A stretch of 64,000 nucleotides of DNA from Sphingomonadales bacterium (GCA_038315875.1 JBBQAG010000001.1:523-64522), one strand, 5' to 3'; positions 7,366 through 10,667 are shown, numbered from the stretch's first letter. A program made the numbers and translations. The notes: a model not told the origin generated them from the sequence alone.

Positions 7366-8270
7366 GCGACTTTGTCACCCATGGGCGGATCATCGGCGGA
7401 TTGGCGACGGTGCCCGATCTTGAGGCGAGCCTCGCCGATTACCGCGATCGATTGGGGTTGAAGGTGATCGAGCACGGCCCCCTGCCCGACGATCTTGCTG
7501 CGAGCTGGGGGTGTCCCGCCAATGCCGGCGCGCGCTTTGCCAGACTCGCCCCGATCAGCGGCGCGCCGTGCAGCATGCGGCTGGTCGAACAGCCACTCGA
7601 TCGCGATTTCGTGCCCACGCGGAGCTATGGCTGGGCGGCGTTCGAGATCACCGTGCAGGATGTATTCGGCTGGCCCGAAAAGCTTGACGGCAGCGGCTTC
7701 GACATCGTTGGCCCGCCGAAGGAAATTCCCGGCCTTCCCTATTTCGTCGCGATGCAGATGCTCGGACGCGGGCGCGAGATGATCTATCTGAACGAGGTCC
7801 GCGAAAATACGCCAACCTCCGATCTGCCCCCTGCGGCATCACCCGTCGATCATCTGTTCATCGTCATCCTCGCGAGCCCGGACCGCGCGGCGACGATGGC
7901 CTGGTATCACGACACGCTGGGGCTGGAGGAAGGCGGTAGCTACACAATCCCCTATTCGATGATCAACAAGGCGTTTGGCTTGCCCGACGGCCACCTGACC
8001 TCGCTGAGCATGGCGCAGAAAGGGCGGATGCCGATCGTCGAGATCGACGATTATCCGGACGTGGCAACCCCGCGCAGGCGGTCAGCCGGCTTGCTACCCC
8101 CGGGCAATGCGCTGGTGACGCTGGCGGTCGACACGCTCGATCTGCCTGGGCTCGATTTCATCACCCCGCCGGCGCTGCGCGACGGTCCCTTCTATGCGTT
8201 GCGCCGCGCCGCGACGGTGATCGGCCCGGCTGGCGAGTTACTGGAACTGGTGGAGATTGATCACCAGTAG
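7362..8270 (+). CDS. VOC/glyoxalase family protein (multi-module)
   Basis: Repeated VOC modules: VPDLEASLADYRDRLGL, SPDRAATMAWYHDTLGL, IGPAGELLELVE. Start overlaps the upstream stop (ATGA). Confidence 0.75.
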   Translation: MSDFVTHGRIIGGLATVPDLEASLADYRDRLGLKVIEHGPLPDDLAASWGCPANAGARFARLAPISGAPCSMRLVEQPLDRDFVPTRSYGWAAFEITVQDVFGWPEKLDGSGFDIVGPPKEIPGLPYFVAMQMLGRGREMIYLNEVRENTPTSDLPPAASPVDHLFIVILASPDRAATMAWYHDTLGLEEGGSYTIPYSMINKAFGLPDGHLTSLSMAQKGRMPIVEIDDYPDVATPRRRSAGLLPPGNALVTLAVDTLDLPGLDFITPPALRDGPFYALRRAATVIGPAGELLELVEIDHQ

Positions 8271-8331
8271 CGACCGACTGACCGATCCCGTGACGAGGCC
8301 ATTTTCATCACCATTGCGAGCGCAGCGAAGT

Positions 8332-9045
8332 TCATCGGTCGCGAGGCGCCTGGTCCTTCAGTCGTGCCGCCGCTGCCATGGTTCGCGCATCGCGATCCGG
8401 CGAAAGCGCTGCTACCCGTTTGCGATAAAGTGCCACCGCATCGGCCCCCGCGCGTTCGGGTGAGCCACTATCGAAGGGCGGCGCGGGATCATATTCGAGG
8501 CTTAGTTGCACCATCCGGGCATGCGCCTCACCCCGGATTCGCGCGGTCAGCGCCAGTGCGAAATCGATGCCCGCCGTCACGCCGCCGCCCGTTACGCGAT
8601 TGCGATCGAAGACGTAGCGCGCTTGCTCGGGGATTGCGCCGAATGCAGCCAGATGCTCATGCTGCGCCCAGTGGCAGGTCGCACGATATCCCGTCAGCAA
8701 TCCGGCGGCGGCGAGCAGGATCGATCCAGTGCACACACTCGTTACCCACTCGGCGCCGGCAGCGGTCTTGCGCAACCATGCCAGCGTCGCATCGTCCTCC
8801 ATTGCCGCTGTCACGCCAAATCCGCCCGGCACGCACAGGATATCGGGCTGGGCGGCGGTGGCGAAGCTCGCGGTAGGATGAAGCGGGAAGCCGGCATCGG
8901 TCGGCACGGGACCCATCGTCTTGGCGACAAGATCGATCGTCATATTGCCGAGCCGCGACAGCACCTGTGCAGGACCGGTGAGATCGAGCTGGGTAACATC
9001 GGGAAACAGCAGAAACGCAACGCGGATCGGACTCAGTTCGGGCAT
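8332..9045 (-). CDS. DJ-1/PfpI family protein, isonitrile hydratase (InhA)-like
   Basis: FLLFPDVTQLDLTGP (Asp21), VPGG, SVCTG (Cys105), ATCHW, GGGVTAGIDFAL, VQLSLEYDPAPPFDSGSP. The 84-residue Asp-Cys spacing equals InhA Asp17/Cys101. SD GGAGG at 9055-9051. Confidence 0.88.
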   Translation of the reverse strand: MPELSPIRVAFLLFPDVTQLDLTGPAQVLSRLGNMTIDLVAKTMGPVPTDAGFPLHPTASFATAAQPDILCVPGGFGVTAAMEDDATLAWLRKTAAGAEWVTSVCTGSILLAAAGLLTGYRATCHWAQHEHLAAFGAIPEQARYVFDRNRVTGGGVTAGIDFALALTARIRGEAHARMVQLSLEYDPAPPFDSGSPERAGADAVALYRKRVAALSPDRDARTMAAAARLKDQAPRDR

Positions 9046-9069
9046 ATCGACCTCCAGCTATTCGAGGGA

Positions 9070-9139
9070 TGCCCAGGCGATGCGGCTGCAAACCCCGCGC
9101 TCCCCGGTGGTGCTCCACCCGATCGCCAGTTACGCGGTT
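9070..9139 (-). ncRNA. ZMP/ZTP (pfl motif) riboswitch aptamer
   Basis: Minus strand reads AACCGCGUAACUGGCGAUCGGGUGGAGCACCACCGGGGAGCGCGG-GGUUUGCA-GCCGCAUCGCCUGGGCA. P1 CCGCGU/GCGCGG, ACUGGCGA, P2 GGUGG/CCACC, GGGGAGC, P3 GCC/GGC, pseudoknot GGCG/CGCC. Ends 25 nt before the start codon. Confidence 0.9.
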
Positions 9140-9281
9140 ATGCCAATAGGTATCGCTGATTGGGGTCGTTTTCCAGCGTAAAGTCGGGCTGTCGTCCGGT
9201 CCCTTGATGGCACGGCAACACGAAACGTCTGCGTAACGGCTGCGTGCTTTTCAGATTCTTGCCATTATCATCCGCTAGGCC

Positions 9282-10667
9282 ATGCGCCCACTTCCTCAAT
9301 TCGCTGCCGGTTGCGCGATCATGCTTTCCGGATGTGCGCCTGTGCCCCGCATTGCCGTGCCACTAGCGGTGTTGTCGGTTGATTGGAGCCGCGATCCACA
9401 TGATCAAGGCGAGCTGACCAACCGGTCGCTTGCCGACATGCTGGGGTCGTCCGCGCTCGCCGCGCTGATCGATCGGGCGATGATCGCCAGTCCCCCGCTG
9501 ATCGCCGCCCGTGCACGGGTCGATCAGGCGGTGTCGCAGGTGCGTGTCGCGCGGTCGACAGGTCTGCCGCTGGTGTCGGCATCGGCGGGCGGCAGTGCTG
9601 CACGCGTTGGCGGGCGCAGTCCGTTCGATTTCACCAGCAGCTTTGCCGCCCTCGATGCGAGTATTTCGATCGACATTTCGGGCGGCATCCGCGCCGGACG
9701 TCGCGCCGCACGTGATCGCGTGAGTGCTGCCGATCTCGATGCGCAGGCGCTCGCGCTGGAAATCGGCGTGACGATTGCCCGGGTTTATGTCGATCGCGCG
9801 GCATTTCAGGCCAGGCTGAGGCTGATCGATCGCCAGATTGCCGCGACGACCCAGCTCCAGCACCGCATCGAGGCACGGCAGCGTGGCCACGCGCCGACGC
9901 CGATCGCGATCGGACTGCAATTGATCCGAGTCCAGAATCTGATCGCCGAGCGCAGCCGCCTCGATCAGGCGCTCGATCAGACCCGCACCGCGCTGGCCCT
10001 GCTGCTGGGTGAAGAGGCGCCGCGCTTTCGCGCAGTGCCAGCCGATCTTAACGCCTTCGATTACCGGACGACGACGGTACCAAGCCCCTCGCAGTTGCTG
10101 ATCGAGCGTGCCGATATCGCTGCTGCCGAACGTCGTATCGCTGCCGCTGGGGGGGACGTGGCACAAGCGCGCGCGGCCTTTCTGCCCCGGCTGGACCTGT
10201 CGATCAGCCGATCGGCAGAGAATTTCCTGACAGCAGGGCCATTTGCCGGGATGAGCATTGGCGGCGCCTTGCTCGCCCCGATCTTTGGCCGTGGCAGACT
10301 GCGCGGCAATCTCGAATTTGCCACCGCAGGACAGCGCGAGGCGGTCGCCAACTATCGAACGGTGCTGCTATCGGCCTTTTCCGATACCGAAAATGCGCTG
10401 TCGGCAGTTCGTCACGCCCGAGAGCGCGCCGCACTTCTCGCCGATATCGAACAGCGGGCGCTGACGACGGCGTCGCTGGCGGAGCGTCGTTATTTGACCA
10501 GCGGGGGTGATTTCTGGGCGGTAATCAATGTCCAAGACCTGTCGATCGCGGCGCAGGACGCCCGGCTCGTCAGCCTTCAGGAACAGCTCGAAGCGAGCAT
10601 CTCTCTCTACCGAGCGACACGGCGATCAGCGACGGCACCACGATTAGACGATAACCCGACAGACTGA
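9282..10667 (+). CDS. Outer-membrane factor (NodT/OprM/TolC family) lipoprotein
   Basis: Lipobox LSGC; two OEP-like repeats; signature PSQLLIERADIAAAERRIAAA...ARAAFLPRLDL. Confidence 0.85.
   Translation: MRPLPQFAAGCAIMLSGCAPVPRIAVPLAVLSVDWSRDPHDQGELTNRSLADMLGSSALAALIDRAMIASPPLIAARARVDQAVSQVRVARSTGLPLVSASAGGSAARVGGRSPFDFTSSFAALDASISIDISGGIRAGRRAARDRVSAADLDAQALALEIGVTIARVYVDRAAFQARLRLIDRQIAATTQLQHRIEARQRGHAPTPIAIGLQLIRVQNLIAERSRLDQALDQTRTALALLLGEEAPRFRAVPADLNAFDYRTTTVPSPSQLLIERADIAAAERRIAAAGGDVAQARAAFLPRLDLSISRSAENFLTAGPFAGMSIGGALLAPIFGRGRLRGNLEFATAGQREAVANYRTVLLSAFSDTENALSAVRHARERAALLADIEQRALTTASLAERRYLTSGGDFWAVINVQDLSIAAQDARLVSLQEQLEASISLYRATRRSATAPRLDDNPTD

Follow-up and report, generated by a model that had tools for sequence, protein, structure and literature searches.

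How does a ZMP/ZTP riboswitch control the gene behind it when no terminator can be seen between the two? The question is raised by the minus strand of a 64,000-nucleotide stretch of DNA from a Sphingomonadales bacterium (GCA_038315875.1 JBBQAG010000001.1:523-64522; hereafter the window), where an aptamer of this class stands directly before the gene for a homologue of isocyanide hydratase. An earlier note on this DNA had proposed that the 3' end of the aptamer pairs with the start codon and blocks initiation until the ligand releases it. Our analysis favors a translational ON-type ZTP switch, in which the invader AUGCCCG clamps the start codon when no ligand is bound, and we give this reading a probability of roughly 0.8. 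The features on which the argument is built are collected in Table 1.

Table 1. Features of the riboswitch leader and its gene, in window coordinates.
Feature	Coordinates	Strand	Basis or role
ZMP/ZTP riboswitch aptamer (pfl motif)	9064..9143	minus	RF01750 alignment
Aptamer P1	9137-9132 with 9100-9095, plus 9129-9128 with 9104-9103	minus	RF01750 pairs mapped to coordinates
Aptamer P2	9119-9115 with 9110-9106	minus	RF01750 pairs mapped to coordinates
Aptamer pseudoknot	GGCG 9127-9124 (J1/2) with CGCC 9079-9076	minus	RF01750 pairs
Aptamer P3	GCC 9086-9084 with GGC 9073-9071	minus	RF01750 pairs
Leader segments GGGCAU, CCC, UCGA, AUAGCU	9074-9069, 9068-9066, 9065-9062, 9061-9056	minus	sequence
Leader segments GGAGG, UCGA, U, AUGCCC	9055-9051, 9050-9047, 9046, 9045-9040	minus	sequence
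Shared switching strand UGGGCAU	9069..9075	minus	in aptamer (conserved CCUGGGC, P3 3' strand) or 5' arm of sequestor
Invader strand AUGCCCG (start codon, codon 2 [Pro, CCC], first base of codon 3)	9039..9045	minus	3' arm of sequestor
Anti-SD CCUC	9064..9067	minus	pairs with GAGG of the SD; inner helix of sequestor in MFE structures
Shine-Dalgarno (SD) GGAGG, 5 nt before AUG	9051..9055	minus	sequence; enclosed by the hairpin
Second UCGA	9047..9050	minus	alternative inner helix with UCGA 9065-9062
Candidate -10 promoter element CCTATT	9145..9150	minus	low confidence; CTA/TA column in homologue leaders
Regulated gene, 237-aa DJ-1/PfpI protein, isocyanide (isonitrile) hydratase ICH/InhA homologue	8332..9045	minus	ORF, Pfam, PDB

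The aptamer, its gene and its distribution

The aptamer was identified by an Rfam search, in which RF01750 (ZMP/ZTP, pfl motif) matches over its full length (model positions 1-86 of 86) with 52.3 bits, against a gathering score of 39, and all of the highly conserved (upper-case) consensus positions are intact. Its 5' subdomain comprises P1 and P2 with the conserved ACUGGCG junction and the GGUGGA...ACCAC P2, the corresponding sequences being AACUGGCG at 9131-9124 and GGUGGAGCACCACC at 9119-9106, while its 3' subdomain has a P3 hairpin with a CCGCCUGGGC-type sequence and the GGCG/CGCC pseudoknot. By its covariance score, the element in front of the hydratase gene is a bona fide ZTP aptamer, which would be expected to bind the ligand of its class. 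A search of the whole source genome (a 2.63-Mb assembly, 92.7% complete) returned this same element and no other ZTP match. A consensus scan of 7500-10000 found no promoter. A CTA/TA column about 10-14 nt upstream of P1 is conserved in 16 aligned homologous leaders, and it is possible, at low confidence, that CCTATT is a -10 element, which would place the start of transcription at the foot of P1.

The gene behind the aptamer begins at ATG 9045, which opens an ORF of 237 codons and is the only plausible start, since an in-frame UAG lies 15 nt upstream. Its product matches PF01965 (DJ-1/PfpI) with 94.5 bits and aligns over residues 7-229 with the isocyanide hydratase of PDB entry 3NON (E = 2.6e-67), relative to which both the SVCTGS cysteine motif and the LDLTGP aspartate motif are retained; as judged from these matches, it is a full-length isocyanide hydratase homologue. 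The ORF layout makes the gene effectively monocistronic, with a convergent gene next to it, and there is no conserved downstream partner gene across the orthologous loci, where most of the "next ORFs" seem to be artefacts, read antisense to convergent genes. On the opposite side, the divergent neighbor (9282-10667, plus strand) encodes an outer-membrane efflux subunit of the NodT type (195.7 bits with TIGR01845, slightly short of the cut-off), and a 138-nt intergenic region is common to this gene and to the riboswitch promoter.

The combination of this aptamer with this gene recurs in the genus. ZTP matches occur in 12 of 36 other genomes of the same genus, and in the 37 genomes that include the source, 13 of 14 matches lie directly upstream of the hydratase gene. 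In the species collection, the riboswitch is present at 32 of 80 orthologous loci, all of them with at least 65% protein identity, and none of the orthologues from Reyranella, Pantoea or other more distant organisms among these 80 loci carries it. Several leaders deserve separate mention. Two of them, from Sphingomonas koreensis S11.1Y (L084) and Sphingomonas sp. 3P27F8 (L093), contain a fragment of the ZTP 3' motif below the Rfam threshold about 40 nt before the orthologue (GCGCCTGGGC and CGCCTGAGC, respectively) and look like riboswitches being lost. Five riboswitch-free hydratase leaders (L030, L032, L036, L038 and L039) have in common a motif, TTCGACAAGCTCAGGG, about 15-40 nt upstream, perhaps a dispersed repeat, perhaps another kind of regulatory site. 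Finally, L014 (G024:C43, match 1501-1581) has a second ZTP-like match of 50.5 bits, in which CCUGGGC reads CCUGCGC, about 70 nt upstream of a gene that does not encode a hydratase and whose product we take to resemble ScpA at its N-terminus; this second match may be a variant or a decaying copy.

Degenerate remnants such as those in L084 and L093 lend some color to the idea that the aptamer in the window is itself a decaying relic that no longer switches, the hairpin described below merely setting translation at a constitutively low level. The three mismatches at the base of P1 and the shortness of P3, which has only 3 canonical (Watson-Crick) pairs, could be read in the same way. We nevertheless hold this to be very improbable, because the element scores 13 bits over the gathering threshold with every highly conserved position in place, and because the short P3 and the arrangement of aptamer and platform are kept across dozens of species with 65-90% protein identity.

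Two exclusive folds around the start codon

The RNA letters and coordinates that the earlier note gave for the leader are exact on the minus strand. Its statement that GGGCAU includes the 3' strand of P3 also holds, since that strand is G9073-G9072-C9071 in the RF01750 alignment and therefore falls within GGGCAU, and the complementarity that it had seen between GGGCAU and AUGCCC in fact extends further, to UGGGCAU and AUGCCCG. In RNAfold, U9075-U9069 lie opposite A9045-G9039 in both the minimum free energy (MFE) structure and the centroid of every construct folded, forming an outer helix of 7 pairs of which the outermost is U.G, and CCUC is paired with GAGG (9067-9064 with 9054-9051) nested within it. 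The invader that is complementary to the P3 3' strand thus includes the start codon itself, and the ribosome-binding site (RBS) lies inside the hairpin. Two extensions of the stem had been suggested, UCGA with UCGA or CCUC with the SD, and both of them fold: the outer helix reaches -14.0 kcal/mol with CCUC:GAGG and -12.3 kcal/mol with UCGA:UCGA, compared with -7.7 kcal/mol for the outer helix alone, about -5 kcal/mol for CCUC:GAGG alone and -1.2 kcal/mol for UCGA:UCGA alone.

The aptamer P3 and the sequestor are mutually exclusive structures. Folding the leader with and without aptamer constraints, a check that the earlier note had put forward, separates two states that differ sharply at the start codon. 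With P1 and P2 enforced, the remainder folds as the sequestor, and the unpaired probability is 0.22 for the SD and 0.22 for the AUG; with P3 enforced as well, and with the pseudoknot bases and U9075/G9074 blocked, the unpaired probability of the AUG is 0.90. For the SD the value is 0.22 (about 78% paired) whichever state is modelled, since the open one still has the small CCUC:GAGG hairpin, and the ligand-controlled element in the model is therefore the start codon and not the SD. Opening of the start site in the model consequently depends on the ribosome melting this 4-bp SD hairpin, which is, by its modelled stability, weak enough for the ribosome to open. The closed and open forms come out at -33.9 and -28.6 kcal/mol, energies that ViennaRNA computes without pseudoknot, tertiary or ligand terms and that thus leave the balance between the two states uncomputed; the advantage of 5.3 kcal/mol for the closed form could plausibly be offset by the 4-bp GC pseudoknot together with ligand binding.

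Taken by itself, the hairpin is statistically marginal and not remarkable. Its stability has a z of -1.22, a level that 23 of 200 dinucleotide shuffles attain, and when the downstream part is shuffled 5000 times, a helix onto GGGC that is as good or better arises in 368 cases (about 7%). The same genome supplied 288 approximate gene starts for comparison, each of them the ATG of a long ORF with GGAG or GAGG in front of it. In this sample the -30..+8 span of the hydratase gene ranks within the top 4.5% for stability (-13.8 versus a mean of -7.5 +/- 3.3) and its start codon within the bottom 9-11% for accessibility, a ranking that is suggestive but not decisive. These figures leave a place for the view that the match between GGGCAU and AUGCCC is a coincidence, produced by an invariant aptamer motif and a Met-Pro N-terminus meeting in a GC-rich genome, and that the riboswitch acts in another way (for example, through the anti-SD:SD hairpin only) or is uncoupled from the pairing. 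The hairpin is ordinary for its composition, CCC is a common proline codon, and the inner CCUC:GAGG helix is independent of the outer one and persists in the modelled ON state. Since the single-sequence shuffles are not significant, the case for sequestration of the start codon rests on comparative evidence.

Conservation of the pairing in Sphingomonas

The comparative set consists of 41 distinct Sphingomonas leaders of the hydratase gene, or expression platforms, that were left once identical leaders had been removed. GGGC is invariant in all 41, and in about 38 of them the MFE structure has this aptamer segment paired to bases that fall from -10 to +12 relative to the AUG, with an anti-SD:SD helix nested inside. 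A search for the best helix containing GGGC gives a similar picture: 39 of the 41 leaders offer GGGC a partner in the -10..+12 range, and 32 of these helices have at least 6 bp; in this search, only L028 and L031 have no partner. The partner is found in three registers, counted from the A of the AUG. The register seen in the window, AUG plus codon 2 (0/+1 to +6), is that of 22 leaders, while 13 use the spacer between SD and AUG (-10 to 0) and 4 use codons 3-4, AUC GCC (+6 to +12). The invader thus appears to have moved within a single genus. Most homologues have a pyrimidine tract at the position of the anti-SD.

Substitutions on the two sides of the helix match each other. GGGCAU stands with AUGCCC in 9 leaders (AU:AU), and in L010 the longer GGGCAUC stands with a GAUGCCC that precedes the real start and is not in its frame. 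GGGCAC is accompanied by GUGCCC or GUGUCC at -8..-2 in L009, L016, L035 and L037 (AC:GU), and GGGCGA(U) by (A)UCGCC in codons 3-4 in L002, L007 and L054 (GA:UC). In 14 of the 41 leaders, GGGCAC pairs with AUGCCC and a C.A mismatch is tolerated opposite the A of the AUG, a base that cannot compensate. The helix score of the set has a mean of 5.34, compared with 3.98 +/- 0.29 in 1000 shuffles (maximum 4.77), none of which reaches 5.34, and the null was subjected to the same helix maximisation as the real leaders. Swapping the 5' extensions between the classes provides weak evidence and discriminates the GA class only, because AUGCCC pairs with an AU extension at least as well as with AC, the commonest in the leaders.

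Codon 2, whose covariation in homologues the earlier note had singled out as a check, is held in place at the level of the RNA. Among the 24 leaders whose gene has proline at residue 2, the codon is CCC in 23, and the exception, CCU in L015, retains a G.U pair. Of the remaining 580 proline codons of the same genes, 35% are CCC and CCG dominates, and the next most CCC-skewed of the conserved proline columns have CCC in 28-30 of 41-42 sequences, so that none matches codon 2. The only leader that reads AUG CCG (L011) has a UGCCC partner upstream instead. UGCCC or UGUCC is found within -12..+6 in 29 of the 41 riboswitch leaders versus 3 of 48 riboswitch-free orthologues, which have different N-termini (Fisher p = 9e-11, uncorrected for phylogeny). 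Counts and p-values of this kind overstate independence, because the 41 leaders are phylogenetically related; the register shifts and the matched substitutions are nevertheless difficult to account for through common descent only. The pairing is kept in the homologues beyond what coding or composition would account for.

The leader of the closest relative, the MAG Sphingomonadales La1_metabat2.072 (L015, 90% protein identity), offers a natural variant of the platform in the window. Before position 1501 its anti-SD CCCUC has changed to UUUUUU, and UCGA:UCGA forms the inner helix of its MFE structure.

A coincidental match is difficult to reconcile with these observations. The partner tracks the aptamer strand and not the protein, as it precedes the AUG in a different frame in L010, L009, L016 and L037, and in codons 3-4 with matching covariation in L002, L007 and L054. 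Proline alone would not ask for CCC in 23 of 24 leaders, the orthologues that have no riboswitch mostly go without a partner, and L015 has lost its anti-SD tract yet keeps the AUG helix. We therefore consider coincidence unlikely, and sequestration of the start codon by the aptamer strand is the reading that we prefer.

Probable translational control and its place among known switches

An intrinsic terminator, which the earlier note had failed to see, was not found by our scans either: between 7500 and 10000 there are 0 terminator-like sites by consensus and no stem followed by a U-tract, and hence no terminator between aptamer and ORF. Nor is there room for one, because the AUG follows P3 after only 25 nt and the Rfam match after 18 nt. 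Control could still be mainly transcriptional if it were exerted through Rho-dependent termination, decay of the mRNA early in the ORF or a non-canonical terminator, the block on translation being secondary. Untranslated leaders often turn into Rho substrates, and the first codons here are C-rich (CCCGAACUGAGUCCGAUCCGC). Such a mode of control seems improbable to us, not only because a stem with a U-tract and the space to accommodate it are both missing, but also because what is conserved is pairing of the SD and the AUG, as a translational platform needs. In addition, the analogous rhtB switch of Pectobacterium carotovorum (Pca) is described in PMC11754884 as showing no ligand-dependent termination in vitro.

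The translational ON logic proposed in the earlier note is thus supported, in the models and alignments, by the exclusive folds, the change in AUG accessibility, the covarying leaders (39 of 41), the constraint on codon 2 and the lack of a terminator. The switch would work as follows. The strand U9075-U9069 would alternate between the aptamer, as the 3' strand of P3 beside the pseudoknot, and the sequestor, in which it pairs with AUGCCCG. When ZMP/ZTP is scarce, the invader would displace P3, and the start codon would be buried in a hairpin of about -14 kcal/mol on which the 30S subunit could not initiate. A shortage of 10-formyl-THF would cause ZMP/ZTP to accumulate, and the ligand, by stabilizing P3 and the pseudoknot, would withhold GGGC from the invader; the outer helix would then collapse, only the weak inner hairpin (about -5 kcal/mol) would be left, and the AUG would become accessible, allowing the isocyanide-hydratase-like protein to be made. 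The pairing itself is conserved and covaries; that the ligand is bound, and in which direction and how strongly expression responds, is inferred, and the switch could act either at equilibrium or co-transcriptionally.

The closest known parallel is the Pca rhtB ZTP riboswitch (Kim, Nelson & Breaker 2015; re-analysed in Nat Commun 2025, PMC11754884), and its validated design bears out the earlier note's appeal to the known ON logic of the class. According to PMC11754884, this switch controls translation, its invader contains the start codon, and its RBS is located distally in the hairpin; transcription is not regulated in vitro, and the switching regions have been confirmed by mutagenesis. Like Pca rhtB, as that source describes it (our base-by-base comparison rests on this description), the Sphingomonas element has a ZTP aptamer, no terminator, a translational ON logic (proposed here), a start codon lying in the invader that displaces P3, and an RBS in a distal inner hairpin that mismatches or an internal loop set apart from the junction of invader and P3, in a manner reminiscent of a "remote toehold". 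It differs in its host, which is a Sphingomonas and not a gammaproteobacterium, in its gene, which encodes a hydratase homologue and not the rhtB exporter, in its inner helix, which is an explicit anti-SD:SD pairing, and in the three invader registers found within the genus. A downstream poly-U tract is present in only 730 of 1755 putative ZTP riboswitches (PMC11754884), and ZTP platforms that use no terminator are therefore common.

Comparison with other riboswitches sharpens the picture. The transcriptional ZTP riboswitches, such as those of Clostridium beijerinckii pfl and Thermosinus carboxydivorans, share the aptamer and the way of switching, in that P3 and the pseudoknot face competition from an invader further downstream, whose strand displacement is prevented by the ligand, so that the gene is turned ON. 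Their invader, however, forms an intrinsic terminator with a U-tract, whereas in the window a U-tract is lacking and the translation start serves as the invader. The add adenine riboswitch of Vibrio vulnificus and the guanidine-II riboswitch resemble the proposed switch in that ligand frees the SD and/or the start codon, but they belong to different aptamer classes, and the element shared between the two states of add is P1, its counterpart here being the 3' strand of P3 beside the pseudoknot. The mechanism is thus not new. Every feature that can be tested at the level of sequence is present, and we therefore place the element with the Pca rhtB type, of which it is a new example that is well supported by computation.

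The significance of the finding is first of all that a start-codon-invader design proven in one gammaproteobacterial ZTP switch is, on computational grounds, the standard in an alphaproteobacterial genus. The 41 natural variants, which cover three registers, the presence or absence of an anti-SD, and A-U or C.A at the junction, could serve as a series for tests of toehold and strand-displacement ideas in translational switches. In addition, the shifts of register put coding positions under a constraint of RNA structure, and codon 2, held at CCC, is a clear case in which RNA structure fixes a synonymous site. On a practical note, translational control means that translational and not transcriptional fusions would be suited to the study of the hydratase switch.

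The second aspect concerns the gene. The gene associations of ZTP riboswitches given in PMC2864571 and PMC7266159 are with purH, fhs, pfl, glyA, folD and related genes, and such a purine or 10-formyl-THF gene, typical of the class though not defining it, is replaced here by the hydratase homologue. This homologue is absent from the ZTP gene lists of Weinberg 2010 (PMC2864571), the text of whose supplements makes no mention of ThiJ, PfpI or Sphingomonas, and our literature search found no paper that links ZTP with DJ-1 or isonitrile hydratase. Production of the hydratase upon accumulation of ZMP could, although we regard this as doubtful for now, form a part of the 10-formyl-THF deficiency response that has so far gone unrecognised. 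To speculate on one example, a route from isonitrile through N-formamide to formate, and on to formate-THF ligase, might conceivably supply one-carbon units, since the source genome encodes a formate-THF ligase (contig C83, 19576-21228) and an N-formyl or formate route to 10-formyl-THF is thus conceivable. A hydratase homologue as the sole ZTP target suggests that enzymes of this family have a connection, so far unrecognised, with purine or one-carbon stress.
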